Shown one piece after another: positions 21,001 to 56,100 of a stretch of 64,000 nucleotides of DNA (position 1 is its first letter; each line of letters opens with the position of its first letter). This DNA is from Candidatus Woesearchaeota archaeon. GTDB lineage: Archaea > Nanobdellota > Nanobdellia > Woesearchaeales > GW2011-AR15. A program made the translations under genes and the position numbers. The notes beneath the pieces were generated by a model. It worked only from the letters and a program-made list of their open reading frames with translations, was not told the origin of the DNA and made no database searches. The DNA is taken from positions 18,293-82,292 of the forward strand of contig WJJD01000058.1 in assembly GCA_014729915.1 (NCBI GenBank), in the 5' to 3' direction.

Positions 21001-24000
21001 TATAACCTGTGTTGATGATGCAGGAAATATTAATACAAGCGATACAAGAAATTTCACGATATCAGATCTTCCTCCAGAAGTCTTTTTATTGACTGAAGAT
21101 GATGTTTACCAGAGTTCAGATTCAATCTCTCTTGCATATAACGCAACTGACAACAATAATGTCACAGAATCAATGCTTTACATAAACGGGATTTTGAATG
21201 ATACAACTGATGATCCAATAGATAATATTGAACAGACATTTAATTTAACTAATTTAGCAGAGGGAATCTATAACTGGACAGTAAATGTCTCAGACATAAA
21301 TAATCTTACAGATATGGCATCAGAAAGATGGTTTACAGTTGATTACACAAAACCTTCAATAAACCTTACAGGACCAGAAAACGGTTCTTTGCTTAACATG
21401 AGCACAGTTTCTTTTAATTATACAGTCTTTGACAATCTTGATTCAGGATTGATCTGCAATATCACGATAAACAATACAGTAAGGGATTTAAATTACGCTG
21501 CTGCAAATAATACTCAGATCTTTAGAGATATAACATTGATTGACGGGGTCCATTACTGGAACGTAACCTGTGCGGATAATGCAGGAAACACAAATACAAG
21601 CATAACAGGAACTGTCCGGATAAGCTCTTCTCCGACAGTTGTTCTTGATTCTCCGGAACAAAATTACTCACAGAATACTCAAGACATGACCTTTTATTAC
21701 ACACCGACAGACAACACTAATTTTACAAGCTGTGATCTTTTAATAAATGATAAAGTCAACAAGACAAATTCAAGCATAACAAATGGTGCACAGAACCAAT
21801 TTTTTGTGCTAGGATTTTCTGAAGGAACATACAACTGGACTGTAAACTGTACAGATACAATAGGTCTTTTTTCTGCTGCATCTCCTAAAAGAGATTTTAC
21901 TATTGATTTGAAAAAACCATCTATAATACTCCACCATCCGCTTTTGAACAAGACATTTTATTCAAGAGATGTGATGTTTAATTATACTGTGGTTGATGAT
22001 TTTTCCGACACACTTAGCTGCAACCTTACAATAGACAGAGAAGTGAATCTTACAGGTATATCATCAATAAACAATACACCTGTCAACAGGACAATAACAA
22101 TTACAGACGATGGTCTCCATTGGTGGAACATAACATGTATTGATGATGCAGGAAACTCAAATACAAGCATTACAAGAAACTTCACAACCTTAAATCCTCC
22201 TGAAATAACTCTTGTTTCTCCTGAAGATAATACAATCCTTACAAACGGCACAGATATTGAATTTGAATACAGCCTGTCAGATTTGGATGGTATAGATAAC
22301 TCAAGCATTTTTATCAACGGAAAAAGAAACAAGACTGATTACAGTCCGAGCACGGAAATAAATAATTATTTTTATCTTAATTTTTCAGAACAGGGAATCT
22401 ATACATGGAATATCGAAGCATTTGATTTAGAGGGACTTGGAGCCAATGCAACACCAAGAACACTCACAATCGATTATTCTCCTCCTGTTGTTACCATAAA
22501 CTCTCCTAAGGAAGGGGATAATCTGTCATGGAACAATGCAACATTTAATTTTACAGTCACTGACAATCTTGATTCACAGCTTTTTTGCAACATAACAATA
22601 AATGATACAACAGAATATGAAAATATAACTGTCTCAAACAACAGCGATGTAATAAGATACAGGATTGTCAGGGATGGAAATTATAATTGGTCAGTAACAT
22701 GCATTGATCATGCAAACAACACAAACGAGTATAAATTGATAAATTTCTCAGTGTCTGCTCCCCCGGATATCACATTAAACTACCCTGTAGATAACTACAG
22801 GACTGGACAGGTAAATCTCACATTCAATTATACACCCGGAGATGCAATCGGATTAGAGAATTGTACATTAATTATCAACGGAGAAGATAATAAGACAGAT
22901 GAAGAAATAGACAAGAACATATACAACTATTTTGATGTGGATGAGTTTCCCGAGGGAGAATACAACTGGACAGTAAGGTGCTATGATAAGACTCCTGAAT
23001 TCAATGAATATACTGCTGCAGCTGAAAACTTTACAATTGATCTTACAGGACCTTCTATAAATATTCACAGTCCTTTAGAGAGTGATTCTATCAACACAAA
23101 CGATGTTTTCTTTAACTGGACACCAATTGATAATTACGGAATAGATTTAATATGCAATCTGACACTAGACGGAGAAGTGAATATTTCAGGAATTACAACT
23201 CAAAGCAGTTCTTTGACAAACAGGACAATTTATGATCTTGATTTCGGAGCACATAACTGGAGTGTGGCCTGCAGGGATGACCTTAATAATAAAAACACAA
23301 CAGAAACTTACAATTTTACAATAAACAATGCTGATCTTACATTAAATTCTTCACATATAACCTTTAATAATTCTGCACCTGAAGAAAATGAGAATATCAC
23401 AATCTATGCAAAAATATTTAATACAGGAGGATCAGATGCAGAAAACTTTACGGTCCAGTTCTTCCGGGGAAACTACACCTTAGGAAATCAGATAAACGAA
23501 AACAGGACATTAAGTCTTCTGATTGGTGAAAATAAGACTGTCAATACTACCTGGTCTGCAGGTGTACCAAATCCATATTATATTTTTGTTGTTGTTGATC
23601 CGCCCATAGCTTCAGAAGGAATCATTGCAGAGCTCAATGAATCCAACAATGTTGCTTTTAATACAGTTTATGTCGGAAGCTATAACACACTTTACGGAAA
23701 TATTTCAGGAGTTCTTAATATAAAGCAGAACCTTACAAACAGGACAGTATTTGAATGGTCGTTATTAAATTTTACAGGAAGCAACATATATGCGGTTGAT
23801 TATGACAGCAATATTGACTGGACAGATCTTCATGCTGTAAGCAGAAATACAACTCTGGATTATATTCAGGATGATTTTTTTGAGATAGATACCGCTCTTC
23901 AGATGGAAAACAACACAGACTCTTTAAACCAAAGCTACACTGCAAATTCACAGCCCAAATTAACCAGAAACTTTACAGTCTATTCCTCTTCGATTTCATA

Positions 24001-24238
24001 TGTTCCGGTCATAAATTCAACAAACAACTCAAATTTTATGACAGGAATTTTGTGGGACAAATCTGACGGAAACAATGAATTCAATGCAACCCAGGATCTT
24101 GTATTCATAACAGAAGTAAAGGAAAATTACTCCGGATATTTCGGATACTATGATTTTGAGTTTAAGGTTCCAAGCAACCTGAAATTATACAAACAGCCTG
24201 ATACAACAAAGGTAGCATTATATACAGAACTAAAATGA
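2..24238 (+). CDS. Giant secreted multidomain surface/adhesin-like protein. It is 5'-partial: the frame is open from nt 2, so the product is longer than 8,049 aa. Modules: DUF2341-like, LamG/ConA-like lectin domains, Big/Ig-like repeats, CARDB, and a conserved C-terminal tail.
   Basis: The ORF track gives 89..24238. Frame 2 has no stop back to nt 2 and reads IGDTAGIVGNSTNFDGSGEW, which resembles the internal LamG repeats, so the gene is truncated by the window. There are 8 copies of the 'DWWN[QST]SW.[YK]RK.INIT ... DLRF' motif at about nt 1075, 3134, 4891, 6448, 9464, 15230, 17241 and 19248. LamG-like segments have the form 'GYIDGADEFDGTSSYITAGDIDEFSD ... LEAWIKPDG ... GGTIDEARISK ... WINQTYQ'. 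A CARDB-like segment at about 23330-23690 reads 'NITIYAKIFNTGGSDAENFTVQFF ... IFVVVDP ... ELNESNNV'. N-x-S/T sequons are extremely frequent. Confidence 0.85.
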   Translation: MGDTAGIVGNSTNFDGSGEWIEDSDAENYLNSTSNISFSVWINSDSIANDRPIFITQESGFNDSSDSWSLIRFDQYGWSGSGEEVIKIALRSSSGTTAAETTSNATGTVWMHLSLVWNSGEAPVLYRNGSVMPWSAAPGPLAGNFEADTLAIGRGNKDEWWDGLIDEFRISNVSRSAAWLNASYLNQFDPSGFYNVKTSEDPETPEISDTKCYESDSDWIDCDTIGFENQIEKIRTTCDSVQGGEVKNVTFVFKNIEDNKIYFNVTTADNSTGYWEYNISDITIYDSGRFNLKTICRQNPESEEEINWTIPFGTLSSELISPDKNINVTKYRFFNFTSKITCTGGECGYINASLDPIDWWNQSWSKRKEINITGISSSGLEEFPVYLNITDETEMQPDYEDLRFFNGSCSVNSGGLNYEIEDYDADHADVWVKVSNLTSGINTLCMYYGNFGAASGENISGVWDNGFIMVHHFQETINDDVEGHIDSSPYSNDGTPKNLQDAGDGTTDTEGKIDGADKFGNDDDYINVDDHASLEPNYITISAWVFPESISSESCTEGQHNRGDMILDKSGGSDDSIEFGLCDDDGIYFYIDTGSDYTASNQTYGFSTDAWYYVSAVYDGSDMFVYVNDELIRTKPASGNIITNANDVHLGGRTDQSKYFDGWIDDMQVSGVGRTQDWINQSYQLMQNQEAFVNFGTGEKITKDLVSMTPRDTPFYTTTNNSMNYESNPCLANMTSGNACNTTWQVNATGDSDSVWEFFTLYESTNYSENVTENKTSKINITILNNAAPLVKSISILPADPRFSDNLTCIYNITDTGYFDDLSANISWYKNEALEYSEIISVENAVRASRELYSGNTSAGEVWYCAVTPKDFELTGTRENSTKKTILASSPPSISKIQCRETETWKSCDEISFNNNLTAVRVNCTDTDNNVANASFNLSNIDDSKILVNGTSADNSTGYFMLDNADIIISDSGAFNITVVCYDESGVSNSNYTQWEIPFGVFSAELVSPVKNINVTRHRFFNFTSKITCIGGECGNVNATLDPSDWWNSSWTYRKEINITGISGTQLQEYPVFLNLSYDSEMLSNYSDLRFINGSCGSSSDLLNYEIENYTNSNALVWIKLPSLDYGKNQICMYFSNPDAASGENISGVWDNEFILIHHFREVVDDDVEGHIDSSPYTNDGTPKNMQDAGDGTTGTEGKIDGADKFGNDDDYINVDDHASLEPNHITISAWIYPESISPEACAESNHNYGDMILDKSGASDDSIEFGLCDDDGIYFYIDTGSDYTASNQSYGFSANTWYYVSAVYDGSDIFVYVNDELIRTKPASGNIITNANDIHLGGRPDQSKYFDGWIDEMQVSGTGRSFGWINQSYQLVVNQDSLLSFSDREKQPKGVISMISGDTPFYTTTNNSINYESNPCLENMSSGESCNTTWNVNTTGDTGEVWAFFAIYTSTDYPSNITDTETTRINLTIIDNSAPGVVSVSLSPAAPLDNQDLNCTINITDPGYFDKLSANITWYKNNVSNYSTIISVENGVKKTSALYSENTSEDDTWYCGVIPYDQDLYGTQSNSSIATIISSIGSLNSTLILPVPNQTTEKNIYTTFTINSLVACEGTTGQTCGDVNATARYSGGDWWNSSFSYRCNITIIEDDGYARINEPVVINGSGLSSQCPDILSAKENSLRLIDDSSSIVKLQVDDWHNITTIRDPDDTLDSDDEIIFLINLSAGQSRQYYLYYDDTVNVSGIYSNDTELQTTATTRTIIAKDWNGTYDRDDGGSSARSGFSDFWIYDTEYGHNSYAMIMPRIGSLDGVDEIFTDENHGPVRYYLRVKQPASDSETDYFFYKDRIYVHSSYADQAFVNYMNDAAGTVGDSSAASDYGYSSDYTIHCYSSDCSVTLSNEAGGYDDLQLDAADDEHSMWVTFNQSKRADHNNIINNPVTKEFSVQENYSGMSPISTNSGATPFFSLSSQPRLCGNMYKGDTCHINWTINATGEIGSSWNIDVIFESSSASVESSETEDVQIDLINNTPPVISDSASSPSIFGYGYSTNITAEITDEENLTDNVWIIIDMPDQASITQNMQNNTLTNYSYYFSDTWRYGSYNYTIYANDTHGAESSSSGQFLVSVTGEMDVSTKNNSYGPDEVVKLEGEGVRDDWWNTSFSYRKQLTITNNDASTLPENYMINLSINTSKLILENKLQIDCDDLRIVWKNSSDSSYHEVDRINETPCNTSQTKITFSTKSTISAASDDRNYWIYYGNSTISEGPQNKSIIYPLWDDFNKPDGDTPGWTVVTGTWQISGNELQGTNPSGSNNAGAVSGDTSWTDYNFTVKMNSSAGSTRAPGPIVRYQDSNNYWWMECYGGDIIFRPKIGGADQDWIDSFSVFAGFPVQGTEYELSMVVSDQHIDMWVDGTKYVDYDVGSSYQISAGSVGFTQHSGTGETVTFDDALVRKYTSSKPSYQLDDEQSLVALKSYVRNKNTNSYDFKAYLLMRIQRYSGGSWINVDTPVVNDIIPPVNQRTFSTGNVLYLNTTWVDKGSWDTETNQNGTYRVLARLTDPTGSIILKKDADENFEATSEFTIGSPDLRITDLTHENLYDHAINEYEVTDTIDWINVSIINLNKTAINATISLSLKDFNDDITDWGPNTIKSCGDLTYNEQCTKKFDNSSSGYQIPETASSGTYNFSWSISLDSEVGNSYINESLKVKIHNLQNNFSAELSPSSIYKNQSSLYNLSIYTPWSENLTEVYVKINCPALSGMVCKCQGGPDNYCYFSSILDETFRDMSFNITTNASTPIGQYNINVTINYTNPGNEIREWTDQQNKELKISQPGILDTFITNTDSSVNRNTLFELTGYTNNTDNSEGDDVNLTWTLPASWTNYSGGFTGYNSSLGTLDRFWYNLTANITLNAEQGIKIIYLTSNSSNKPGSTDSYSVTVYLKPKLVNLVSDDYDPGQGDSIQLQATLEYDNGTVMQGQTVSFYDTTQNYSIGSDSTDSSGIAAVNYNIADDAAVKTHTINISYSGDAGNYIRKNSSLLNITVHQITNISEVSASPQKTGYGMQINLSAKIIDGDGITSAKVNITYPNSSVVSYNLSSFGTSYSKIFNKTWNPGKHYYKIQTSDSTGENSQSALYNFTISTNASLRVETKKYNYSQKEHVNLSLTPEFWWSTDYSHRKQINVTNNDAQVLKKGYTMNISLDTASLISADKMEADCADLRITWYNSTGAVEMELDRIIDSSCNRADTELTFMIQENISASFSDTNYYLYYGNSGTDNPPENKTRVYIFYDEFNYTAGTLPGWTVVSGTWQTHQQKLRGQSPSGQNNMGAKNGDSTWTDYRMETRMNSAGGSTRAPGPIIRAQDNDNYWWFEQYNGQIVFRPKIGGADQGWEASFSVFGGYPVQGTWYNLTLEVIDQHVDIFVDGTQYVDYDIPVADQVTNGEIGFTQHTGTNEDVRFDDVKVTLLMSAGPSADIRGEESLSSVVLNNGSADFKAYLFMKIQYNNSGVWENKQTVVDDLSTSTIRRINSSDYLGLTSIWQDNGAWYTDLEENGIYRVYSEIRDISGNVLADDSGNYLNDSEIFEILPPSINIDLDSITIYDVTDAADTHTDTITLVDSGLNKTFELFTNKSYRVEIKVDVLQDSADYIINESNITHNNLNGDWNITAGDIWYADFEKTYSGGTFSRQNVSWNSSSGGSVSEFNSVTFYYVVNTTTDTSGNYPVLFRIKNPNYQEQDSSVYYVIESEESPPGLYNDEYNLVPSIVFRNETLKISARWNEEIRQARAEYNSTSADLGNYTIALPEPNPYNWTNHSITTNISWILGVHSARIYAQDLNYNWNKTLDYKTFEVRGYSSVSSITLDPQIIDIDENTSILCRVISDNLSGIENYNVSFYNGSGLIGTNLTNQTGWAVFTYQDKTAGTETFSCNISDDPEKYYNVSTDSRKSDLTTHEFEYPWYDNVNQSSPIVHKTGLINLWAMWYDNLELDKAWLSTNETGSYQNNTLADSIFFAGNESRSNFTAEIPEDANPGAVGWRIYANDTSDNVNQTSVYGFEIWGYAKVSSITLDPESMFVGNTTNITCRVIDANSTSSIENYNVSFYNSTGHIGSALTDASGYAKINYTDSSSGLETIICNITDWDIGYYNISLQNSQQEELNTLPEGYDIYPPGIIEYDLTKDSITRGKNITIYAQWTEEINRSKVKYNSTSSEIFTYNLTPPFPENRTNYTITTNNTWYAGRHSAKLTAYDQNNNRNNTLSYLDFNVTGWSKVYWHLPTEIVAGDTISLVCNVSDKHLDTPISNYLVYFYNETFDYLGYNYTNESGLAALNVSIGGKTGSETYYCEISDSLDIFYKVNSSFNDDLASQLLTFNQQSPQISLHYPQNNYNSTTDFINFNFTATDDLDEIMECDLIVDSVTEKSGFNATNNTITNVNATLTDGYHNWNISCSDDNGLEDTSSTRTLKIDTTGPEIEIKSPDNNYWHTENITILFNATDLTLVNNCSLIINNEINRTKNSSVLNNPNNFTLNNNNQGIYDYKINCSDIYGFTDASSRKTFYIDTTKPSIELFSPVKNSTQYSVVITFGLRSTDNLADLMMCDITSDGVEIVQDIKVYNNTFTTSEYDYGYEGVGKHYWNVTCTDNASNINTSWTWDFNISVIPNISLDSPANDTWSKHNLTFTYTPKDVNGFENCSIYIDDILNDTDESIVNYYENSFYIENVSEGKHNWTVKCFNNNLVLLAANQTNTFTIDRTDPSIRLLAPEPGSLKNISSVEFNFTVLDNLDSLLVCNLTINSSVESVDFNVSNNSITNQTVIDLKDGVFDWNITCIDNAGNTNTSLTGNFNISVDPNVTLNQPENNFITKLRNISFNYTPEDLTGIENCSIYINEELNDTEDNIKNNRINRFNITDFKQGKYNWTVKCYDSSRYRNSYKAPLRYFSINDSIPPEIENTQCYKTGSGWVDCDSLAFNEVIESVHTKCYSNVSGIVDNVTFSLKNIDDNKVYYNQTLTSKAGEYWEYNHTDIRILDSGEFNLHIICRENPVTEEDTNWTISFGTLSSELISPTIDINVSRNRFFNFTSKITCSGGECGYVKAGLDPVNWWNTSWERRKQINITNIGSSVLSDFPAYLNISKESGMRNDFYDLRFFNGSCGFETEELAYEIEFNGSLQADIWLKIPSLNPGKNTLCMYYSNSQAQNAENISGVWDDDYVMVLHLDETTGVHYDSTSYNYNGSGSVNSQDAEGYIDGADEFDGTSSYITAGDIDEFSDQITLEAWIKPDGTQSSWAKIISKRNSANNHYVYTLQYDSAQHLTFQLNDAALAATTTSTYSSQSWVYAAGSYNGADMDLYVDGVSAASDSGATVVPASDYPTSLGARYRSGADQYFGGTIDEARISKKGRSRIWINQTYQMMANPQNIVEYSSGEINKGLISTNEGDTPFYTIDDNPMNSTYLACLANMTAGESCNTTWSVNATGTADSVWEFFATYESMNYSDNVSENITTTVNINIIDNQAPVVESISLSAQNPGETRDLNCTFIVTDSSSFDILTANVSWYKDDELSYSKIIDVSNGVLKNHILDSANTTAGEVWHCGVTPYDQYLYGNSQNSSKITIQLSEPPVISGIQCKENGESWAGCSEIQFNDNLTHIRADCFDPDGEVINVTFTLKNLDDNYTYFSGTTQDNSSGYFVFNNTDIRITDSGDFRLTAVCRDDFDVNDTEQTEWLVPWGTLSSTLLDPTGNINVTKNKFFNFSSRISCSGGECGHVNVSLDPVKTWWNSSWEYRKEINITSLGSLEKFPAYLNISKESEMRDDYYDLRFFNGSCGADTEELAYEIEFNGTFNADAWVKIPALSAGTNTICMYYGNSDAENGEDIAGVWDDDYVMVLHLDESAGMHYDSSSYGYNGTPDSISDQDAAGYIDGADEFDGTSSYITAGDIDEFSDKITLEAWIKPDGSQEDYAKIITKRSDSNHYLYTLQYDDSQHLIFQVNDNTIGVESAATYSASSWSHVLGTYDGSDMNLYIDGVPETPASGSTTIPGSSYPAGIGARYLSSASHFFGGIIDEARISKKARSQVWANQTYRMMADQDSFVTEGRSEKGKSLVSTIHGDTPFYTTDANPVFPEDENCLENMISGVSCNISWEINATGNYWTTWEFFVESMAMNYSDNISTSISSKINITITPNQAPSLSSVSISPEYPVHTDNLTCRFTITDPNYFDSLSANITWYNNSIPAYSQTVDALNGIVANATLNSINTTAGEKWHCGVIPYDGNLYGDELNSSNITILSERPPEINKIECYRNNTDWIDCSALEFNDVFSGVRANCTSDQNSISNVTFNFTNIPDSQKYFENKTATNTGDWWYFYKNITMNNSGEYNIYSVCRDNSTNTTDVDELTNWTIPWGTLSASLIEPDADTNKQVDSFFNFTSEITCLNGECGNVEAQLDPSVSWWNYSWDKRKEINITSVASAELANFPVYLNITKESDMQNDYEDLRFFNSTCNDHQSTELNFEIEKYDSSNADIWLSLPILKPGTNTICMYYDNAAALSGENISGVWDDDYVLVLHLDESSGTHYDSTSYGYNGSPSVLDQNAAGYIDGADEFDGTSSYITAGDIDEFSDEITLEAWIKPDGSQDDWSKIITKRNSGDSDYVYTLQYDNAQQLMFQLNDAAISSTTTTTYSSSVWSYIAGSYNGSDMDLYVDGISRGSDSGSTTIPGSTYLTGIGARYISSASHFFGGTIDEVRISKIGRTMDWINQTYQQVADYENIITVGDQETRQKGTVSTIEGDTPFYTTDENPLNYSHKSCLENLIAGRVCNVTWKVNATGPVGSVHEFFVIYNMTTNRPYVSDTETTHIYITISDSADIPPAVSLLRPENNHLTNHPDVVFNCSASDNTGLFNITLYSNFGGSFEENGTNSITGTENSTTFSRTLNQGTYIWNCLGFDIDGNSDWGNSNYTFTIDTTSPSISLSGPGDGDSFNNNNIEFNFTVMDNLDTTMVCNITVNNTVEDENFNAGNNSLITRTITEFGSGTHFWNITCVDDAGNINTSDTRNFTISDLPPEVFLLTEDDVYQSSDSISLAYNATDNNNVTESMLYINGILNDTTDDPIDNIEQTFNLTNLAEGIYNWTVNVSDINNLTDMASERWFTVDYTKPSINLTGPENGSLLNMSTVSFNYTVFDNLDSGLICNITINNTVRDLNYAAANNTQIFRDITLIDGVHYWNVTCADNAGNTNTSITGTVRISSSPTVVLDSPEQNYSQNTQDMTFYYTPTDNTNFTSCDLLINDKVNKTNSSITNGAQNQFFVLGFSEGTYNWTVNCTDTIGLFSAASPKRDFTIDLKKPSIILHHPLLNKTFYSRDVMFNYTVVDDFSDTLSCNLTIDREVNLTGISSINNTPVNRTITITDDGLHWWNITCIDDAGNSNTSITRNFTTLNPPEITLVSPEDNTILTNGTDIEFEYSLSDLDGIDNSSIFINGKRNKTDYSPSTEINNYFYLNFSEQGIYTWNIEAFDLEGLGANATPRTLTIDYSPPVVTINSPKEGDNLSWNNATFNFTVTDNLDSQLFCNITINDTTEYENITVSNNSDVIRYRIVRDGNYNWSVTCIDHANNTNEYKLINFSVSAPPDITLNYPVDNYRTGQVNLTFNYTPGDAIGLENCTLIINGEDNKTDEEIDKNIYNYFDVDEFPEGEYNWTVRCYDKTPEFNEYTAAAENFTIDLTGPSINIHSPLESDSINTNDVFFNWTPIDNYGIDLICNLTLDGEVNISGITTQSSSLTNRTIYDLDFGAHNWSVACRDDLNNKNTTETYNFTINNADLTLNSSHITFNNSAPEENENITIYAKIFNTGGSDAENFTVQFFRGNYTLGNQINENRTLSLLIGENKTVNTTWSAGVPNPYYIFVVVDPPIASEGIIAELNESNNVAFNTVYVGSYNTLYGNISGVLNIKQNLTNRTVFEWSLLNFTGSNIYAVDYDSNIDWTDLHAVSRNTTLDYIQDDFFEIDTALQMENNTDSLNQSYTANSQPKLTRNFTVYSSSISYVPVINSTNNSNFMTGILWDKSDGNNEFNATQDLVFITEVKENYSGYFGYYDFEFKVPSNLKLYKQPDTTKVALYTELK
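650..4700 (+). repeat. Two tandem ~2-kb intragenic modules (Ig-like x2, DUF2341-like, LamG, Ig-like x2) that are about 90% identical at nucleotide level in their cores
   Basis: Compare nt ~1380-1700 with ~3430-3750: 'gtcgagggccacattgattcttctccatat...' versus 'gtcgagggccatattgattcttctccatac...'. Protein motifs repeat in the same order: KCYESDSDWIDCD/QCRETETWKSCDE, FGTLSSELISP/FGVFSAELVSP, WWNQSW/WWNSSW. Confidence 0.65.
13050..23330 (+). repeat. About 30 tandem ~90-100-aa Ig-like beta-sandwich repeats of two alternating types, within the giant gene
   Basis: Alternating units: type A ends '...DG.H.WN[IV]TC.DNAGN.NTS....F.IS', and type B reads '...P..N.....N.T..Y.P.D..G.ENCS.YI......T........F....F.EG.YNWTVKCYD' followed by 'T.D.T.PSI'. 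Confidence 0.55.
14770..20500 (+). repeat. Three tandem ~2-kb intragenic modules of the same architecture (copies 3-5), with LamG cores of about 95% nucleotide identity
   Basis: The segment 'ggctatattgacggtgcagatgaatttgacggaacaagcagctatatcacagcaggagatattgatga' recurs at about 15661, 17668 and 19681. The protein motif GYIDGADEFDGTSSYITAGDIDEFSD occurs three times. Confidence 0.65.
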
Positions 24239-24348
24239 TTTCATACAAAAAATGTGCAGAAGATAATTTTCTGAATTTTTCAGGAAGTCTAAACTTATCT
24301 TCTGCACCATTCCATCAGGGAAAAATTCAGAAAACAAGCATTTTTTGT

Positions 24349-26493
24349 ATGAAAAAGAAATACAGAAAATTCATCAGGCTCATCTTTTTTTTATTTTTAT
24401 TTTCAGTAATTATCAGATCAGCTCTATCAGACTGCACAGCAAACAACACTCCGCAGCTTAATCTTCCTGAAAACTTTAATCTTTATGAGGGAAAGCGCTT
24501 CTACTATGAAATAGATGTCAATTATTCATTTGGACACGACCTTTTATTTTCGTATAATCCGGTCAAATCTTCTTTTGAAAATTTTGAAATAAAAAACACA
24601 ACAGGGATAATTGATTTTATACCCCAAAAAAATGATGCAGGCCTTCAGAGAATAATAATTTTTGTGATAAATGAAAAAGAATGTTATGACACACAGCTCC
24701 TAAAATTTAAGATATTTGACAGCCCCGGGATAATATACCATTATCCTGAAGAAGAATATGTCATAATAAAGGAAGGAGAAAAAGAACGATTCTATGTGAA
24801 TGCCTCAACAGAAATCCTTGAAGATAACAAGTATTATTACAGGTGGCTCCTTAACCAGAACATCAGATCAATTGAAAATGAATTCATATATTCACCTGGT
24901 TTTTCTGATTCAGGAACATACAATTTAACTGTCATAGTTACAGATAAAAATCGACTGGAAACGAGTCACACCTGGAAAATAAGAGTAGAAAATGTTAACA
25001 GGAATCCGGTACATCTGAGAGATACCGGAGATATCTATGTTTCAGCAAATAGTAATTTTGAACTTTTTAATCTGAATGATTATTTTACTGATTATGACAA
25101 TGATACACTTGGCTTTGATTACTGGTTTATCAAAAACAGGACGAAAACAAAGGAATCTGAAAATTTTGATGTGAACATATCTGATTCAGGAGATGTTTCT
25201 GTAAAATCACTTACAAACAGCACAATTACAGAAAAATTAGAATTCAGGGCCGGTGACTCGTCAGGAGAATATGCATCAGGAACCACTTTTAACATAAGTT
25301 CAGTCAGCAAACAGAGTGCTGAAGATTTTTTCAGTACCGGGAACTGCACACCAGATATCAATTGCGGGGACTGGTCAGAATGCTTTTCAACTGGATTAAG
25401 AATAAGAAAATGCATTGATAATAACAACTGCACAAAACAGGACAAGGAACTCATTGAAACAGAGAAATGCGATTATTCCGCGGATTGCTTTGACGGTATC
25501 AGAAACCAGAAAGAAGAAGGGATTGACTGTGGAGGCCCGTGTCTTCCCTGTCCAAGCTGTTCAGACGGCCTGAAAAACCAGAATGAAGAAAAAACTGACT
25601 GCGGAGGTCCATGTGAAACTTGTCCTGACTGCTTTGATTTTATTAAAAACCAGGATGAGACAGATGTTGACTGCGGAGGCTCATGCAGGCCATGCAGGAC
25701 AGGAGAAGCATGCATAAAAGACAATGACTGCATAAGCCTGAACTGCAAAGAAAAAAAATGCATGAATGCTATCTGCAGTGACAGTATAAAAAACCAGGGA
25801 GAAGAGGATATTGACTGCGGAGGTCCATGTCCGGCCTGTGCAAACTGCACTGACAGCATAAAAAACCAGGAAGAAGAAGGGATTGACTGCGGTGGTCCCT
25901 GTGAGTCGTGTGCAACATGCAGTGACAACATTAAAAATCAGGGTGAGTTTTTAGAGGACTGCGGAGGTCCATGTAAAAACTGCTTTGCAGTATTTTTTGA
26001 AAAGGGATTTGAGAAGATTCCCCTGCCTGTTATCTTTGTATTTACGATAATAATAATAGTTGTCATACTCGGAAAGTTCTATGTCGAAAATGATGTTGAT
26101 CTATTGTTGACTTTGAGCAGATTTACTAAATTTATCATAAAAATCCCTGATCAAAAACTAGAAAAGGCAACAGATGAGACCATAGAAAAATTAAGAACCC
26201 TAAAACAGGAATTTCATGGATATAAGACGGATGAGGAGCTTGCAGAAAAATATAATGAGATAATCAACAATTATTTTCAGGATATTCTGGATATTGAAGA
26301 TGTCTTTACAATAGGAGTTCTTGAAAAGACTCTTAAAAAAAAGATAAAAAATATTTTTGCAAGAAGACTGCTTTTCCTGGTATATGAAAACTCATCAGTA
26401 TCATTAGAAGGAAACTTTTTTTTCAAATTAGAACTGGAGCACAATATCCAGGAAATACAGAATCTTCTAAGAAAGATAAAGCAGGCCTTATAA
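24349..26493 (+). CDS. Single-pass membrane protein with a signal peptide, an extracellular domain containing about 8 tandem Cys-rich ~24-aa repeats, one TM helix and a coiled-coil cytoplasmic tail. The ORF track starts it at 24235; I prefer the internal ATG at 24349.
   Basis: 'MKKKYRKFIRLIFFLFLFSVIIRSALS' is a classic n/h/c signal peptide beginning at the in-frame Met at 24349. The 24235 start overlaps the giant gene's stop. Repeats: 'CFDGIRNQKEEGIDCGGPCLPC', 'CSDGLKNQNEEKTDCGGPCETC', 'CFDFIKNQDETDVDCGGSCRPC' and similar. The TM helix is 'IPLPVIFVFTIIIIVVILG'. Confidence 0.7.
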   Translation: MKKKYRKFIRLIFFLFLFSVIIRSALSDCTANNTPQLNLPENFNLYEGKRFYYEIDVNYSFGHDLLFSYNPVKSSFENFEIKNTTGIIDFIPQKNDAGLQRIIIFVINEKECYDTQLLKFKIFDSPGIIYHYPEEEYVIIKEGEKERFYVNASTEILEDNKYYYRWLLNQNIRSIENEFIYSPGFSDSGTYNLTVIVTDKNRLETSHTWKIRVENVNRNPVHLRDTGDIYVSANSNFELFNLNDYFTDYDNDTLGFDYWFIKNRTKTKESENFDVNISDSGDVSVKSLTNSTITEKLEFRAGDSSGEYASGTTFNISSVSKQSAEDFFSTGNCTPDINCGDWSECFSTGLRIRKCIDNNNCTKQDKELIETEKCDYSADCFDGIRNQKEEGIDCGGPCLPCPSCSDGLKNQNEEKTDCGGPCETCPDCFDFIKNQDETDVDCGGSCRPCRTGEACIKDNDCISLNCKEKKCMNAICSDSIKNQGEEDIDCGGPCPACANCTDSIKNQEEEGIDCGGPCESCATCSDNIKNQGEFLEDCGGPCKNCFAVFFEKGFEKIPLPVIFVFTIIIIVVILGKFYVENDVDLLLTLSRFTKFIIKIPDQKLEKATDETIEKLRTLKQEFHGYKTDEELAEKYNEIINNYFQDILDIEDVFTIGVLEKTLKKKIKNIFARRLLFLVYENSSVSLEGNFFFKLELEHNIQEIQNLLRKIKQAL
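25480..25990 (+). repeat. Tandem Cys-rich repeat array, consensus about C-x-D-x-I-K-N-Q-x-E-E-x-I-D-C-G-G-P-C-x-x-C
   Basis: About 8 successive copies are read directly from the translation. The antisense ORF 25473..25931 carries the periodic 'GPPQSI' mirror image of this repeat. Confidence 0.7.
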
Positions 26494-26497
26494 TAAA

Positions 26498-29400
26498 ATG
26501 GATATGAAAATATTAAAAAACATAGTTTGTGTCATTCTTATTATTTTATCAGCCGGCACTGTAATTTCTCAGATATCTTCGGATAGTGATATTATACAGC
26601 TGGAAAAACAAAAATTCAACCGTTTAGAAAAAATACAGATTACCGTAAAAAACCATTCAGAAAAAAGATTAGTGATTTTATCAGAAAACAATTTTTATTC
26701 AATAACAGATCTTAAAAAAACAAATACTTTTCTTCCAACAAACCCAGGAGATTATCAGATAAGGCTCCTGGATAAAAATCAGGAAATACTCTTTCAGAAA
26801 AAGTTTCAGGTATCAGGCAGAAAATCCGCTCATGAATCTTTCGGAACAATAAAAATCATAAATAAGGATAACAAAGAGATATTTTCTGACTATAGGTTTA
26901 TATCAAAAAACAAAATAATTTCCGAAAATGAATTAATTTCTCCCGGGAATTATGATATTGAGATAGAACCTGAGAATATTGATATTAAAAAAATTAAATT
27001 TAATAAATTTAATTTTACAGGCCGGTTTTATATAAAGCTTGACAAAATCAACATTAAAAAGATCAGCAATAAAAAAATTGTTAAAGCATTTGCGATTGAT
27101 TCAAACAACCTGAAATTTGAAGAAACAGAGATTACTGCACAAGCAAAGGGAACAGAACTCTGGAAATGCAGTGATTTTGATTTTTCAGGAGAGCTATGCA
27201 GCAGCAAATGGAAGAAAATAAAAAATATAATTCCGGGAAATGAATATTTTATAACTGTATATGACAAAACAGCAGGATTTGCTGAAACAGGTGTTGCAAC
27301 AGTTAACACTGAAAAACCAATTTATCATCCTGATGAGATTGTTAACATATATATGGTTGTACTTGATAATTCTGGATTCCTGGTGACAAATGCTCATTTG
27401 AATCTTGAGATTACCTCTCCAAAAAATCAAAAGTATAATCTGAAAACACCCGGGGATATTAAAGAGATTAAAAAAGGAATATATCGGGCTGAATTTTCTC
27501 AAATTTCTGTTCCGGGAAATTATATAATGAAAGTTATTGCAAAAGCAGAAAATACTGACAGCGATCTTATAAGTTATTTTACTGTAAGGGATTCTTATGA
27601 GTTTGATATCCTGAGAAATAATCCTTTGACAATTGATCCCTGGAAAGGTCCCTTTTTTTCATCAATTAGCATAAGAACATATGTTGATGCATCTTATTTT
27701 TCTTTCACAGAAATACTGCCCTCATCATTTACAATACATGATTCCGGAACCGGACTTGTCACAAATCATCCAGACCATAAAGAAATCACATGGACTGGCC
27801 TTGAAAATGATTCAGAAGTCTATTATACTGCAAATTCTCCTCTTAAGACACCTGAACTCTATGAGATAGGGCCTTCAAGAATCAATTACGATGATAAGAT
27901 ATTTACTGAAGCAAGACCATGGTATCTTGCTGTTGATCCTGTATTAAATATCAATGCATCCGGCTGCAGTAAACATTCAAATGCAAGCTCTTCAAATACA
28001 TTTGATGATGCCTGTTCTGATCCATATAATCTGAGCCTTGAAGATGGGAATTACCAGATTGCGGATGCACAGCAGGATGATTACTGCGGTATTGAGGCAG
28101 TCTATAATCAGGATCTTGAGGATTGTGCAAAAATCAACAGGGTCGATGTCTGCATAGACTGGTGGTTTACAGGGACAGTCCTGGAATGCCTTGGAGTGAA
28201 TTTTACAGGAACCGGGACATCAGGAACATGGTATACAAGCCAGCTGAGCAGCTGTCCTGAAGCTAACGGGGATATGATATGCTCTGATGAGACATCTTAT
28301 TTTGACTGGAACTGCAATTCATTTACAGGTGATAATGCAGCAATAAGAGCCCAGTTGAGAAGCCAGACAGACTCTTCCCACTGCATCTATGATGCAGTTT
28401 ATTTTAATATCAATTATTCTGCATATCCGAATATAACCGGCAATATAACAAACAACGGGCCTGTAATACAAAGACACAATATCACTTTTACCGGAAATTG
28501 CACTGATCTTGATCCCGGTGATAATTTCCGGCTCATCGTATGCAACTCTTCAACTTCTGAATGCAATGCAACAACAGCAGGAAATGATCTTATATGTAAA
28601 GGAGAATTTACAGATTCAAATTCCCCCAATTGCACGTACACTGCAGGATATGATGATATTGGTTTACATACAGGCGATATAGGTACCTGCTGTGATGCTG
28701 AGGGAAACTGCAATCCTGTTCTTCATGATGTTGAGGACTGGCAAATCTTATCAGGAACCCCGGATCTTACAACAGAAACACAATTTATTCATTTTTCAGA
28801 TGAATCTCCGTCTGAATCAGAAAACATAACAATAAATTCAACAATAAAAAATATCGGAAACGGGACAGTCTATAACATAACAATACAATTCTGGGATGAG
28901 CATCCTGACAGCAACGGGCTAAAAATTAACGGAAACAGGACAATAGATAAGATAATGGATAAAAAAAATAAGACAATAAATATAACATATAAATTCACAA
29001 GCCCGGGCCCTCATGAAATCTATGTATTAATTGATCCTGGAGAAGATATACATGAATCAAACGAAACAAATAATGAGATATATAAAGTTATCAATGTACC
29101 TTCCTGGCATATTTATTTTGGAAATTTATCCTCGCTGATTGTGCTCGGAGATGCAGAAAATAAGACAAAGATAACCTGGAATTCTGAAAATCCTTCGATA
29201 ATCTATATTGTTGAATCCGGAACTGATATAAACTGGGATAACCTGCAGGCACTTACAAGAAACACAACTGATGAATATGAGTTCAATGATTTTGAAGAAT
29301 TTGATGATATGCTAAACATGACATATTTTTCAGATTCTGTAAATAATACATTTACAATAAATTTCCAGCCCAAAAAAACAGTTTCTTTTGAAATTTATGA

Positions 29401-29650
29401 CAGGACAATAAATAATGTACCGATAATCAATTCAACAAATTCGTCAACCTTTGTTACAGGAGTTTTGTGGGATACAAATGACGGAAACACCCATTACAAC
29501 GGGACACAGGACATTGTATTTTTCACAAATTCAACAGAAAAAAAACAGGGAAAATACGGGACATATGATTATGAATTATCTGTACCCGCTCTTCTCAGAG
29601 AATACAAGCTAGGTTCTGATAAATTGACAATGTATGTTGAAATAAAGTAA
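26498..29650 (+). CDS. Secreted 1,050-aa surface protein with a signal peptide, a Cys-rich central region, a CARDB domain, and the same ~180-aa C-terminal tail as the giant protein
   Basis: N-terminus 'MDMKILKNIVCVILIILSAGTVISQ'. CARDB-like 'ENITINSTIKNIGNGTVYNITIQFWDEHP ... HEIYVLIDPGEDIHESNETNNE'. The tail '...VPIINSTNSSTFVTGVLWDTNDGNTHYNGTQDIVFFTN ... GTYDYELSVPALLREYKLGSDKLTMYVEIK' aligns with the giant's '...VPVINSTNNSNFMTGILWDKSDGNNEFNATQDLVFITE ... YDFEFKVPSNLKLYKQPDTTKVALYTELK'. Confidence 0.8.
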   Translation: MDMKILKNIVCVILIILSAGTVISQISSDSDIIQLEKQKFNRLEKIQITVKNHSEKRLVILSENNFYSITDLKKTNTFLPTNPGDYQIRLLDKNQEILFQKKFQVSGRKSAHESFGTIKIINKDNKEIFSDYRFISKNKIISENELISPGNYDIEIEPENIDIKKIKFNKFNFTGRFYIKLDKINIKKISNKKIVKAFAIDSNNLKFEETEITAQAKGTELWKCSDFDFSGELCSSKWKKIKNIIPGNEYFITVYDKTAGFAETGVATVNTEKPIYHPDEIVNIYMVVLDNSGFLVTNAHLNLEITSPKNQKYNLKTPGDIKEIKKGIYRAEFSQISVPGNYIMKVIAKAENTDSDLISYFTVRDSYEFDILRNNPLTIDPWKGPFFSSISIRTYVDASYFSFTEILPSSFTIHDSGTGLVTNHPDHKEITWTGLENDSEVYYTANSPLKTPELYEIGPSRINYDDKIFTEARPWYLAVDPVLNINASGCSKHSNASSSNTFDDACSDPYNLSLEDGNYQIADAQQDDYCGIEAVYNQDLEDCAKINRVDVCIDWWFTGTVLECLGVNFTGTGTSGTWYTSQLSSCPEANGDMICSDETSYFDWNCNSFTGDNAAIRAQLRSQTDSSHCIYDAVYFNINYSAYPNITGNITNNGPVIQRHNITFTGNCTDLDPGDNFRLIVCNSSTSECNATTAGNDLICKGEFTDSNSPNCTYTAGYDDIGLHTGDIGTCCDAEGNCNPVLHDVEDWQILSGTPDLTTETQFIHFSDESPSESENITINSTIKNIGNGTVYNITIQFWDEHPDSNGLKINGNRTIDKIMDKKNKTINITYKFTSPGPHEIYVLIDPGEDIHESNETNNEIYKVINVPSWHIYFGNLSSLIVLGDAENKTKITWNSENPSIIYIVESGTDINWDNLQALTRNTTDEYEFNDFEEFDDMLNMTYFSDSVNNTFTINFQPKKTVSFEIYDRTINNVPIINSTNSSTFVTGVLWDTNDGNTHYNGTQDIVFFTNSTEKKQGKYGTYDYELSVPALLREYKLGSDKLTMYVEIK

Positions 29651-30491: not shown

Positions 30492-31433
30492 GTGAAAATG
30501 GGATTTTTAAAAAATATCTGTCTGGACTTGAGTTTCCTTGATATCAGAAGACTCTTGAAAAAAAATAAAGAGTCTGAGGAAAAAACTGAAAATCAACAAA
30601 TAAAAGAACAGGTTTCTCAATCTGATGAACCAAGACAGCCTCCCCGACTACCAAGATCTCTATTTGACAGAAAATCAAATCAGGTTGCACCTCCTGAGAA
30701 AGCACCCTCTACTCTTCCCGAGATATCTTATGATTTTTTCAAGAAACAAGGAAAAAAGAAAAACAAACAATCTCTTAAATCAAAACCAATCCAAAAACAA
30801 ATAACAGAGGAAAAACCATTTGAAAAAATCCCTGTATCAGAGAATACATTTTTCAATAATCTTGTTTCAGATCTTAAAAAAGATTCTCTGGAATACAGGG
30901 ATACAAAAAATGTTATTGTTGATGATCTGTTTTCTTCAATGAAGGAATTTTGGCAAAACAAAAAATATGATAGAGGCAATAAACAAAAATTAAATTTTAT
31001 CAAAAAAGAAGTAGTTGACAGGATGCAGGAGCTTCATGAGCTTGAGGTCGAGTGGCAGAAATCCAAGATCACTCATGAAACTCTGGGAGATAACCTACAT
31101 AAAAAAGAATTGGAAATTGAATCAAAAATAAGAGAACTTAAAAAGATCTTTCAAAAACACCATGCTCATATGGAGGTTAAACAGGAACTTTTTTTTAATG
31201 TAAAAAACGGCATGACAATAAAATCACTTTCAGAACTTAACGACAAGCTCCCTGAAATACCTGATGAAGTATTTTTTTTTCATGTTAATGAAAACAAAAA
31301 TGATTTCTCTACATGGATAAATGATGTTTTTGGTCTCAAAAACCTGGCAAAAGACCTTTCTGGAGCAAAATCAAGAAATGAATTTTCAGAAATTCTTGAA
31401 AAACATGTTTCAGATGAGGATTTTTCCATTTAA
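30492..31433 (+). CDS. Soluble, charged coiled-coil protein ending in the conserved ~70-aa 'HVNE-KNDFS-W' C-terminal domain
   Basis: The C-terminus 'FFNVKNGMTIKSLSELNDKLPEIPDEVFFFHVNENKNDFSTWINDVFGLKNLAKDL' aligns with the C-termini of the products of 45052..47544 and 51965..54850. No TM helix is present. A TATA-like 'ctataaaaaaatatatatac' lies at about 30445-30464. Confidence 0.7.
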   Translation: MKMGFLKNICLDLSFLDIRRLLKKNKESEEKTENQQIKEQVSQSDEPRQPPRLPRSLFDRKSNQVAPPEKAPSTLPEISYDFFKKQGKKKNKQSLKSKPIQKQITEEKPFEKIPVSENTFFNNLVSDLKKDSLEYRDTKNVIVDDLFSSMKEFWQNKKYDRGNKQKLNFIKKEVVDRMQELHELEVEWQKSKITHETLGDNLHKKELEIESKIRELKKIFQKHHAHMEVKQELFFNVKNGMTIKSLSELNDKLPEIPDEVFFFHVNENKNDFSTWINDVFGLKNLAKDLSGAKSRNEFSEILEKHVSDEDFSI

Positions 31434-31709: not shown

Positions 31710-31910
31710 ATGGTAACCTTAACAGAGTTTAAAAAGGAGTGGGTAAAACTTGTTTTTAATGAGACCCCGACTAAAGTAGTTGTTAAGCAGGGATACCTCT
31801 ATGATGATGGAGAATTCTATAAAGTGATCGGAGACAGATCAGAAACGCTTGTGCGCAAAGATAAAGTGATCAGTATAACTAAAAAATCTTTTAAAGGTGA
31901 TACAAAATGA
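31710..31910 (+). CDS. Small hypothetical protein (66 aa), translationally coupled to the next gene through an ATGA overlap
   Basis: ORF 'MVTLTEFKKEWVKLVFNETPTKVVVKQGYLYDDGEFYKV...'. Its stop overlaps the start codon of 31907. Confidence 0.4.
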   Translation: MVTLTEFKKEWVKLVFNETPTKVVVKQGYLYDDGEFYKVIGDRSETLVRKDKVISITKKSFKGDTK

Positions 31911-32734
31911 TAAAAAAAGATAGATCAGGAATTAGAAAAATTTTAGCTGTATTTTCAGCATTCATCATACTATCAATATTTGCTTATGCAGCATCAGATG
32001 ATGAGCCAATGCCACTAGAATCTCTCAATGCAACTGAAAACGAAAGGATAAATGTATCTCAGATACCACTTAAATCACATGATGCAGAAGCTGGTAATTT
32101 AACAAAATTGGTCCTATTCGGTAGATCTCAGACAAAGCACTGGCAGGGTTATTACGGAGACATCACAGGTACAATAACATTGGATGATGCTCAGAACTGG
32201 ACATTATATGACTGGGACAATCCTGAGCCCAAAGGAGAGATATATGCAGTAGCAAACACTTCAGGTACAACACCCTCCTGGAGTACAGTCGAATGCTTTA
32301 ATTATACTCAGGAAACAGCAGGAGCAGCATGGGCAAACGGAAACACTACACTTGACAGGTGGGAGACATATTACAACATGACGTGGAATGACGTTGACGG
32401 GATCAATGAGACATTCAATGTGACAACTCATCTTGGATTTTCAGTCGGCTCATATACAATAGATGCTGATTCTTGCCCTGCAACATATACGTATGTAAGT
32501 GATGCATATCAGCAGGACAAATTCAGTGAAATATTGCTCCAGACTGATGAAGCCCAGCTGGTCTTTGCAACAATCATTGAAAACGATGATGAAGCAAATA
32601 ATACAGACCCTACAGGTTTTGATGATGTAGCGCATGACTTCCAGATGCTTGTAGCTGAAGACGGAACGAGTCTTAGTGCAGGTGAGATCAATGAGGATCC
32701 CACAACTTATTATTTTTACATAGATATAGAGTAA
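31907..32734 (+). CDS. Secreted ~250-aa protein, paralog family P1, with a signal peptide and a C-terminus of ...TYYFYIDIE
   Basis: Signal peptide 'MIKKDRSGIRKILAVFSAFIILSIFAYA'. The shared core 'HWQGYYGDITGTITLDDAQNWTLYDWDNPEPKGEIYAV ... STVECFNYT' aligns with the products of 32802 and 36006c. It has many N-x-S/T sequons. Confidence 0.75.
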   Translation: MIKKDRSGIRKILAVFSAFIILSIFAYAASDDEPMPLESLNATENERINVSQIPLKSHDAEAGNLTKLVLFGRSQTKHWQGYYGDITGTITLDDAQNWTLYDWDNPEPKGEIYAVANTSGTTPSWSTVECFNYTQETAGAAWANGNTTLDRWETYYNMTWNDVDGINETFNVTTHLGFSVGSYTIDADSCPATYTYVSDAYQQDKFSEILLQTDEAQLVFATIIENDDEANNTDPTGFDDVAHDFQMLVAEDGTSLSAGEINEDPTTYYFYIDIE

Positions 32735-32801: not shown

Positions 32802-33560
32802 ATGGAAAAAAAAATAAAACATCGGGATTTTCAGGCAATTCTTCTTGTTTTATTTTTATTGATAATTTATTTTTCAATTGTTATTGCAGCTGAACCTGAA
32901 GGAGGCACAATTGATTTTAAATCAAATTCAACAAAAAATATTACTCCTCCAAGTTCAAGAAATGACACAAAGGGAACAATTACAACTATTGTTATGACAG
33001 CCACACAACAAAACACAAAATGGAAAGCATATGTCGGAAATGTGACAGGAACTCTTGTCTTGAGAGATGCGGCAGATTACAGTATTTATGAATGGACATC
33101 AATCGGAGATCCGACAGGAGAAGTATATATAACAAGGAATGATTCAATAGAATGGTCAAATATCAAGTGTGCAAATTCAACAATTATTGACAGTGAGCAG
33201 GTCTTTTTAAATCATTCACCTACATCCCGGGATAATATCAACAATACTTTTTCAAATCAGGCCCATGATTCATTCTGGGTTGGTGACGTTACCGAAATTC
33301 AAAACAGCACCTGTTGGGGTACAGCAACCTGGATAAATGATTCTTCCCAGACAATTAATGAAGATTCACTGTTCCAGGAGATATTATTGTATGACAATAC
33401 AAATCTTATATATACAACCATAATAGAACAGAATCTCCAGGGATACAGAAATGATTCCGCAACAACTTATGATTTCCAGGCAATACTTCCTGATAATGCA
33501 TTACCCGGAAGCACCGGACAGGTAACATATTATTTTTATGTTGAGATCGAGTCAGGATAA
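32802..33560 (+). CDS. Secreted ~250-aa protein, paralog family P1, ending ...TYYFYVEIESG
   Basis: Signal peptide 'MEKKIKHRDFQAILLVLFLLIIYFSIVIAAEP'. Core 'KWKAYVGNVTGTLVLRDAADYSIYEWTSIGDPTGEVYITRNDSIEWSNIKCANSTII ... NLIYTTIIEQN'. Confidence 0.75.
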   Translation: MEKKIKHRDFQAILLVLFLLIIYFSIVIAAEPEGGTIDFKSNSTKNITPPSSRNDTKGTITTIVMTATQQNTKWKAYVGNVTGTLVLRDAADYSIYEWTSIGDPTGEVYITRNDSIEWSNIKCANSTIIDSEQVFLNHSPTSRDNINNTFSNQAHDSFWVGDVTEIQNSTCWGTATWINDSSQTINEDSLFQEILLYDNTNLIYTTIIEQNLQGYRNDSATTYDFQAILPDNALPGSTGQVTYYFYVEIESG

Positions 33561-33561
33561 A

Positions 33562-44092: not shown

Positions 44093-44362
44093 TTGTTAAT
44101 ATACTGCATGGAAAATTTTTTTAAGGGATTGATTGATAAAAAAACATTAAGGATTCTAAATCTGCTTTTTGAACACGGAGATGACCTTTGGCACATAAAA
44201 AAGATTTCAATAGAGTCAGAAGTGCCCTTATCAACCACCTTTAGAATAATAAAAAAATTTTTGAGATTAAATATTGTTGAAAAAAGTCTTGTCGGGAAAT
44301 TAAAAATATATAAGCTGGCAAAAAACAAAAAAACAGACTATTTAAAAAGAGTTTTAAAATGA
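44093..44362 (+). CDS. Small winged-helix DNA-binding transcriptional regulator of the ArsR/TrmB type
   Basis: 'KKTLRILNLLFEHGDDLWHIKKISIESEVPLSTTFRIIKKFLRLNIVEK' has the helix/turn/recognition-helix/wing pattern. An alternative start is at Met6 (44108). Confidence 0.45.
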   Translation: MLIYCMENFFKGLIDKKTLRILNLLFEHGDDLWHIKKISIESEVPLSTTFRIIKKFLRLNIVEKSLVGKLKIYKLAKNKKTDYLKRVLK

Positions 44363-56061: not shown

Positions 56062-56100
56062 CTGGAAAGTCAGGTCATTGGGTTCAGCCCAGTTCTTAAT

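Follow-up and report, generated by a model that had tools for sequence, protein, structure and literature searches.

A C-terminal domain common to giant adhesin-like proteins and small secreted proteins of Woesearchaeota and related archaea, and its putative role in surface docking

The stretch of DNA analysed in this work (64,000 nucleotides of a Candidatus Woesearchaeota contig, hereafter the window) has a G+C content of ~35% and encodes proteins identical to those of the public Candidatus Woesearchaeota records GF327_03645, 03650, 03665 and 03775. A giant open reading frame (ORF), open at position 2 and running to 24238, specifies a protein of more than 8,078 amino acids (aa) whose N-terminal part, made of six Laminin_G_3 (ConA-like lectin) domains, DUF2341 and immunoglobulin (Ig)-like domains, is typical of adhesins, and which carries a single CARDB domain. 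Our subject is the tail that follows this CARDB domain down to the end of the chain, which is shared by a second large protein of 1,050 aa (identical to protein P0017 of the public data) and by three small secreted proteins designated P1a, P1b and P1c. The similarity among these proteins is real, conserved and beyond chance, and it defines a new domain family (the P1-fold) rather than a new short signal; its function is inferred. The features on which the argument is built are the following:

23330..23656, plus strand: the giant protein's CARDB domain, with the tail directly downstream (Pfam PF07705, E 3e-10; aa 198-306 of a piece that begins at 22739)
23660..24235, plus strand: the giant protein's 192-aa tail domain (P1-fold), matched over profile positions 2-189 (tail profile E 4e-72)
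24218..24232, plus strand: LYTEL motif in the terminal strand (...VALYTELK) of the giant tail, with the stop codon at 24236..24238
26498..29650, plus strand: ORF of the 1,050-aa protein
28760..29080, plus strand: the 1,050-aa protein's CARDB domain, at aa 755-861 (Pfam PF07705, E 3e-13)
29081..29647, plus strand: tail domain of the 1,050-aa protein, ending ...TMYVEIK (MYVEI motif at 29630..29644; tail profile E 2e-76)
31907..32734, plus strand: P1a, made of a signal peptide, an N-terminal extension of ~45 aa and the domain (~aa 77-275), ending YYFYIDIE (tail profile E 6e-5; public record GF327_03645)
32802..33560, plus strand: P1b, a standalone secreted copy of the domain, ending YYFYVEIESG (P1 family member, 32% identical to P1a)
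36006..36731, minus strand: P1c, a standalone secreted copy of the domain, ending PYFFWIELA (tail profile E 7e-6, profile positions 7-170)
55867..56061, minus strand: a 64-aa ORF ending KKIYIEVA, outside the P1/tail family, the distal piece of a frame broken by a TAA at 56101..56103

The original prediction held that the giant and the 1,050-aa proteins share a CARDB domain followed by a tail of ~180 aa, and our alignments bear this out. The last 373 aa of the giant protein are collinear with residues 695-1050 of its smaller counterpart (38% identity, E 1e-60; 43% for the tails alone), and in both of them the Pfam CARDB model scores above its cut-off of 22.7 bits (with 40.6 bits for the giant and 50.2 bits for its counterpart) directly before the ~190-aa tail, being a domain upstream of the tail and not the tail itself. 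The strings quoted from the two tails were all found (VP[VI]INSTN.S.F.TG[IV]LWD, the YD[FY]E..VP stretch and the ends ALYTELK and TMYVEIK), as was the h-Y-h-E-h ending on all six proteins named as its bearers (the giant, the 1,050-aa protein, P1a, P1b, P1c and the 64-aa ORF). Amphipathic terminal strands could be common in the β-rich proteins of an AT-rich genome, and the endings of the 64-aa ORF and of P2, an unrelated protein family of the window finishing in ...GKI.FTA, do show that strand-like termini are frequent among its exported proteins. However, the strict motif has a background frequency of 6.6e-4 per position in the window's proteins, so that ~0.13 C-terminal occurrences are expected against the 6 observed among 33 C-termini (naive P ~4e-9, with five of the six being mutual homologues and hence not independent events), and it is kept across hundreds of clusters and confined to one homologous family. 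As a general explanation, chance or compositional convergence is therefore hardly credible; it is rejected for five of the six proteins and is the best reading only for the 64-aa ORF.

This last ORF lacks its own signal peptide and lies in frame with a 153-aa ORF (56101..56562), the single TAA at 56101..56103 standing between them. It was matched by neither the tail nor the P1 profile, and a search of 5.8 billion proteins with the joined 153-aa and 64-aa frame returned no homologue except the upstream 153-aa ORF itself, the only part of the frame present in public protein data (GF327_03775). One extra motif match among the remaining ORFs is expected with a probability of ~0.1. The 64-aa product is thus an orphan fragment of a TAA-split gene and its inclusion among the bearers of a common terminus has been abandoned; for the split frame (55867..56562, minus strand), a sequencing error, a pseudogene and a gene that is truly split all come into consideration.

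For the remaining five proteins the ending is conserved well outside this genome, being present in 163 of the 164 tail-family representatives (in 149 of them the chain stops exactly one residue beyond the motif) and in 117 of 120 P1 homologues. The consensus derived from 235 distinct tail endings is V-x-[F/L]-Y-x-E-[L/I]-[K/R]-end (Tyr 93%, Glu 94%), the terminal residue being K or R in 54% of the 164 representatives, and that derived from 94 P1 endings is Y-Y-F-Y-V-E-[I/L]-x-end (Tyr 81%, Glu 94%), with Glu swapped for Q, A or N in some members. In the strand so defined, positions -4, -2 and 0 are hydrophobic and the near-invariant Tyr and Glu lie on the opposite face. A small subfamily of ~320-340 aa, made of a signal peptide, CARDB and the tail (proteins P0008-P0013, P0018 and P0097, e.g. 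10001..11014 of the related locus L001), has Asp in place of Glu and ends in F-F-[IL]-D-[IMLF]-D plus 3-4 residues including a Cys (SCLS, SICS, SACS, SLC), which may offer a position for a disulfide bond or for a modification.

Profile-profile comparison established that tails and P1 proteins are homologous. With shallow alignments (18 tail and 3 P1 sequences) hhalign gave a probability of 97.1% (E 6e-11) over 162 columns, and with deep ones (157 and 120 sequences) 98.8% (E 1.3e-16) over 160 columns, tail residues 6-191 lying on P1 residues 84-257; a reversed P1 alignment, used as a control, scored 0.1%. The deep tail profile matched all 120 P1 homologues and the deep P1 profile 99 of the 157 tails. 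The three P1 proteins of the window are ~32% identical to one another, and the two branches are ~22% identical apart from the terminal strand, with common signatures that extend over the ~185 aa of the domain: GN[IV][ST]G near the start, NST, W.D, YD[YF][EQ] and the terminal [FL]Y.E[IL]. Both tails of the window and the P1 proteins are recognized by the profile of the P1/tail family, which is defined in this analysis. Since both tails and all three P1 proteins of the window are homologous from end to end, their shared ending is the last element of a shared domain. Therefore, the h-Y-h-E-h ending is the last β-strand of one ~185-aa domain and not an independent short signal, at variance with the suggestion that a portable terminal signal marks different co-localised exported proteins: its bearers carry one homologous domain, and in 80 related loci 172 of the 174 ORFs of at least 100 aa with the strict motif are members of the P1/tail family.

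Scans against Pfam and NCBIfam returned no family match to either tail even at E values up to 1 and found no family in the three P1 proteins, the sole NCBIfam hint being a sub-threshold N-terminal match in P1b (14 bits against a cut-off of 47). The anchoring modules SLH and CWB2 gave no Pfam match. The tail corresponds to no known globular domain and its motif is kept outside this genome, two points on which the initial observation could have failed and did not.

The P2 proteins of the same genome, likewise secreted and β-rich, were used as a control; the possibility that they form a third branch of the P1/tail domain was rejected, as hhalign gave 1.5% at most against either tail or P1. The P2 module, which ends in YWKLKIP..G.C.GKI.FTA, is found at 33538..34506, at 54872..55780 and in the C-terminal ~290 aa (59184..60074) of the product of 56694..60077. 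This arrangement, i.e. two standalone secreted proteins of ~300 aa plus the C-terminal domain of a 1,127-aa protein with disaggregatase-related repeats, parallels that of P1 and tail.

A search of 1.84 billion cluster representatives with the tail profile revealed at least 811 clusters at 50% identity carrying the tail, 672 of them below E 1e-30, in proteins ranging from 180 to 6,414 aa. P1 is represented by at least 749 clusters at 90% identity, all of them hypothetical proteins of ~240-275 aa without Pfam domains. A complementary scan with a 5-sequence core alignment, in which each GTDB species was represented by one genome, yielded 195 confirmed matches, from which 75 tail loci were kept. 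Nearly all of these are labelled Woesearchaeota, Pacearchaeota, Nanoarchaeota or Nanoarchaeia; a few bear the labels Aenigmatarchaeota or Undinarchaeota, and some labels look mislabelled or mis-binned. An earlier analysis reported that modules of lineage-specific families, most of them of unknown function, are common to Woesearchaeota and Pacearchaeota, and that in DPANN many families of this kind have a predicted membrane-bound or extracellular location (PMC8204110). In the literature on DPANN and Woesearchaeota surface proteins we found no description of the P1/tail domain.

The tail forms the end of the protein in 150 of 164 representatives, and in all 97 further ORFs from the species scan the domain is followed by no more than 6 residues. 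A CARDB-type end motif precedes it in 110-117 of 132 cases, and about eight tails follow a different domain. Likewise, 88 of 91 P1-type domains are terminal, the other three being N-terminal with long extensions; therefore, a free C-terminus is usual but not obligatory for the domain. One of these three is a 537-aa protein of locus L001 (11901..13511, minus strand) in which Ig-like domains and then a C-terminal transmembrane helix come after the P1 domain (aa 52-238, ...YYFFSDCE), making it a candidate membrane tether for a P1-based assembly; its gene adjoins those of the tail protein P0009 and of a homologue of the window's 40502..42307. Two further proteins, of 1,035 aa (L066, 6103..9207, plus strand) and 793 aa (L078, 2233..4611, plus strand), combine a weak P1-like N-terminal domain (E 6e-5 and E 3e-6, respectively) with CarboxypepD_reg domains and a C-terminal HerA/DUF87 ATPase. 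These fusions adjoin tail genes in one Pacearchaeota and one Woesearchaeota genome and could represent a trans-membrane machine touching P1-fold proteins.

P1 proteins also differ from tails in a fixed N-terminal extension of ~43 aa which the latter lack: the distance from the mature N-terminal [ED]PxG to the W.AY.G at the start of the domain is exactly 43 residues in all 48 measurable cases. Two conserved Cys are present in 116 of the 120 P1 homologues (P0165-P0284). The sequences contain N-x-S/T sequons at ~9.7 per P1 protein and ~8.6 per 190 aa in tails, which makes heavy N-glycosylation of both likely.

AlphaFold modelling of the giant tail was sensitive to alignment depth. An 18-sequence alignment gave a mean predicted local distance difference test score (pLDDT) of 68.7 and left residues 175-192 unplaced at a pLDDT below 50, whereas with 89 sequences it reached a pLDDT of 94.2 and a predicted template modelling score of 0.88, with five agreeing models and no low-confidence region. 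The latter model consists of 11 strands and 3 short helices, the final strand (residues 185-189) being placed inside the fold at a pLDDT of ~94, as expected for an integral element rather than for an independent terminal signal. Co-variation points in the same direction: the variable core-facing positions of the strand change together with residues of several other strands, L187, Y188 and T189 being coupled with Y108, Y177, L11/Y12, Y44 and I52 (mean-field direct coupling analysis of 236 sequences, under-powered and taken as supporting only). The coupled residues sit in several elements of the fold, as expected of a core-facing strand. The three relatives that bear the domain N-terminally, and continue for hundreds of residues past the strand, add to the case against a separate signal. 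Invariant polar or acidic residues occupy positions D87, S88, N119, S120, T121, W132, D133, D136, D146, D165 and E167. No significant structural relative was retrieved with Foldseek from 350,542 chains (best E 0.12, best TM-score 0.24) or from BFVD (best E 0.14), a profile search against the PDB sequences gave no match to the tail, and no structural similarity was found to the known folds of donor-strand fibre subunits (chaperone-usher pilins, TasA, archaeal threads, bundling pili and cannulae).

These models bear on the idea that the terminal Y-x-E strand is inserted into a neighbouring P1 or tail domain, so that P1 proteins would polymerise by strand swap or donor strand into a fibre or sheet with the giants as terminal or decorating subunits. 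Several observations fit such a mechanism: the terminal strand is the best-conserved element common to both ~22% identical branches, the C-terminus is free in more than 95% of members, the P1 genes are arranged as 2-6 tandem paralogues, the shallow-alignment model leaves residues 175-192 unplaced, and insertion in cis or in trans would give the same contacts in a monomer model. However, the deep-alignment model closes the fold in cis with a pLDDT of ~94, and in the three relatives with an internal strand another 300-800 residues follow it, which renders strand swap an unlikely explanation.

The gene cluster of the window recurs in all five related loci compared (L001 and L004-L007), with a large tail-bearing protein, 2-6 P1 genes, P2 and a ~600-aa homologue of 40502..42307, together with homologues of 44359..45048, membrane proteins ending in DUF5752 and a helix-turn-helix (HTH) gene overlapping a P1 gene. 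Among the 75 tail loci, only three kinds of genes recur within 10 kilobases (kb) of the tail: P1 in 31 (14 of 31 when only loci with full flanks are considered), P2 in 19 and the DUF5752-ending membrane proteins in 21-27. Three membrane proteins of the window end in such a DUF5752-like domain (30492..31433, 45052..47544 and 51965..54850); the literature searched made no mention of DUF5752. The HTH gene (36721..37242, minus strand; ~170-190 aa, with Sigma70_r4_2 and HTH_23 matches) overlaps the start of P1c by ~10 nucleotides, an overlap that recurs at L004, L006 and L007, in three other genomes, and suggests co-translated regulator-P1 pairs. Sigma-70-like genes have been reported to be prevalent in Woesearchaeota (PMC8204110).

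The same survey speaks to the possibility that the tail is a secretion or sorting domain, recognized and perhaps cleaved by a dedicated export or attachment machine in the manner of the C-terminal domain of the Bacteroidota type IX secretion system (T9SS; Por_Secre_tail). The latter domain, β-rich as well, likewise occupies the very C-terminus of secreted proteins that are otherwise unrelated and often of great size, and the tail is indeed strictly C-terminal on cargo of widely differing size and composition, the chain stops one residue past the motif in 149 of 164 proteins, and a weak P1-like domain is fused to a HerA/DUF87 ATPase in two loci. Nevertheless, the T9SS domain measures ~80-100 aa, is cleaved by PorU and relies on an outer-membrane translocon, whereas the P1-fold extends over ~185 aa and also occurs standalone; the tails matched neither the Pfam and TIGRFAM models of Por_Secre_tail nor any other sorting-signal model, and no genes for PorU/PorV/SprA machinery were seen in the window, whose host lineage is archaeal. 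A sorting role would also turn the standalone P1 proteins, which consist of little beyond a Sec signal peptide and the domain, into cargo-less signals, and it would come on top of the N-terminal Sec-type signal peptides already present. Contrary to the proposed recognition by a dedicated membrane or processing factor, no conserved partner enzyme or membrane protein, and none that is universal, accompanies the tails within 10 kb (of the 75 loci, 5 contain the g601 homologue, and none contains the 493-aa membrane protein or the S26-like peptidase). Taken together, we regard a sorting function as very improbable.

The archaeosortase signals (PGF-CTERM, PEF-CTERM) resemble the tail in being archaeal, lineage-specific and C-terminal on surface glycoproteins, but they are tripartite, a transmembrane helix standing between a short motif and a basic tail. 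In the last 200 aa of 164 members we found neither a hydrophobic run of at least 16 residues nor a hydrophobic anchor after or within the tail, and the ends ...ALYTELK and ...TMYVEIK contain neither an LPXTG sortase motif nor a hydrophobic segment. In line with the original prediction, the ending is therefore not PGF-CTERM, a sortase signal or any other signal named in Pfam or NCBIfam. As to its proposal of a common sorting, export or assembly signal, an assembly or anchoring role is plausible for the whole domain; what has to be given up is the short separate signal.

With homology, distribution, terminal position, gene linkage and predicted integration of the strand in place, we favour, with some confidence, the view that the domain is a docking module which holds adhesin-like proteins on a P1-containing surface assembly. 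The P1-fold is a lineage-specific extracellular domain of Woesearchaeota, Pacearchaeota and Nanoarchaeia used in two architectures: small secreted P1 proteins (Sec-type signal peptide, fixed 43-aa extension and domain) encoded in tandem clusters, and large-to-giant secreted adhesin-like proteins without membrane anchor in which it is the obligatory last domain, usually straight after CARDB. The hydrophobic face of the terminal strand (-4, -2, 0) is predicted to pack into the core, leaving Tyr and Glu on the other face. According to the docking model, the tail would act as the cell-proximal module that associates with P1-family partners, some of them membrane-anchored, and the large proteins would thereby be held at the cell surface like a tip adhesin with a subunit-like domain.

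The comparison with the tip adhesins of chaperone-usher pili (FimH, PapG) is instructive in both directions. These combine a receptor-binding, lectin-rich N-terminal part with a C-terminal domain homologous to the adjacent small secreted subunits, and the N-terminal extension of the subunits is missing from the adhesin copy, just as the ~43-aa extension of P1 is missing from the tails. On the other hand, there is no similarity to the pilin fold and no chaperone or usher here, archaea have no outer membrane, and the predicted P1-fold is complete in cis with no strand lacking, the polymerisation of P1 being postulated here. A further parallel is offered by the bacterial wall-anchoring modules CWB2 (Clostridioides difficile SlpA/Cwp) and SLH, in which one module is likewise common to an abundant small or structural family and to large variable surface proteins; for the P1-fold the role of holding proteins on the envelope is a proposal of ours.

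Several points weigh against docking on P1. The P1-tail interaction and the assembly of P1 are themselves inferred, more than half of the tail loci lack a P1 gene within 10 kb, no solved structure related to the fold offers a function to transfer, and the placement of the terminal strand in the modelled monomer depends on alignment depth, being lost with 18 sequences. In addition, a metal- or glycan-binding site would account just as well for the many acidic and polar residues that are conserved (DS, NSTN, WD.SD, YDYE). The domain could accordingly be pictured as a ligand-binding anchor for some non-protein component of the envelope, whether of the archaeon or of its host (for instance Ca2+-bridged polymers, an N-glycan or a lipid head group), with P1 as free or secreted binders, and both the clustering of the invariant polar and acidic positions in the sequence and the lack of a nearby P1 gene in most tail loci would agree with it. 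Yet no significant fold or sequence match to a lectin or carbohydrate-binding family emerged, and this alternative leaves the multi-copy, tandem arrangement of P1, its linkage to tail genes and the membrane-anchored P1 domains unexplained; we hold it to be rather doubtful.

Returning to the docking module, it is tempting to speculate further that P1 builds a surface polymer or lattice specific to Woesearchaeota, Pacearchaeota and Nanoarchaeia into which the giant lectin-rich adhesins are plugged through their C-terminal P1-fold, the Y-x-E strand and the acidic cluster forming the inter-subunit joint, possibly Ca2+-dependent or strand-swapped. This extended version is tentative and, to our judgement, on the unlikely side; if true, it would provide a new, chaperone-free principle of archaeal fibre or adhesin assembly, based on a fold for which no relative has been solved, and the likely host-attachment apparatus of these episymbionts.

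Woesearchaeota and Pacearchaeota are abundant, uncultivated archaea with small genomes that are thought to live attached to hosts. Our findings concern the retention of their giant surface proteins at the cell and the way in which these proteins make contact with the host. They define a very large, unannotated and lineage-specific domain family with a confident predicted fold and no solved relative, which lies at the presumed cell-proximal end of giant proteins and ties these, by gene linkage, to small secreted paralogues, thus supplying a profile for annotation, a target for structural work and a route to probe the mounting of DPANN adhesins. Should co-assembly of P1 and tails prove true, this would be a new archaeal surface-assembly system.

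Other genes of the window deserve brief mention. Between the two tail-bearing genes lies that of a 752-aa protein (24235..26493, plus strand), whose ATG overlaps the stop codon of the giant ORF and in which a transmembrane helix and then a cytoplasmic tail come after six Cys-rich repeats (G.DCGGPC..C); its relatives occur in 5 of the 75 tail loci and it is not part of the tail feature. A 164-aa protein (43466..43960, minus strand) with the N-terminus MNDKRGVSTFLGAIILVLVVV... looks pilin-like by eye and has no Pfam match, and a 167-aa product (39337..39840, plus strand) gives a weak match to S26-type signal peptidases and has a 54% identical homologue in L004. Finally, genes for a glutathione-synthetase-like ATP-grasp protein, a class-II glutamine amidotransferase and a GCS2-type glutamate-cysteine ligase stand together at 48270..51520, so that this reduced DPANN genome encodes a pathway for a thiol or a gamma-glutamyl peptide.

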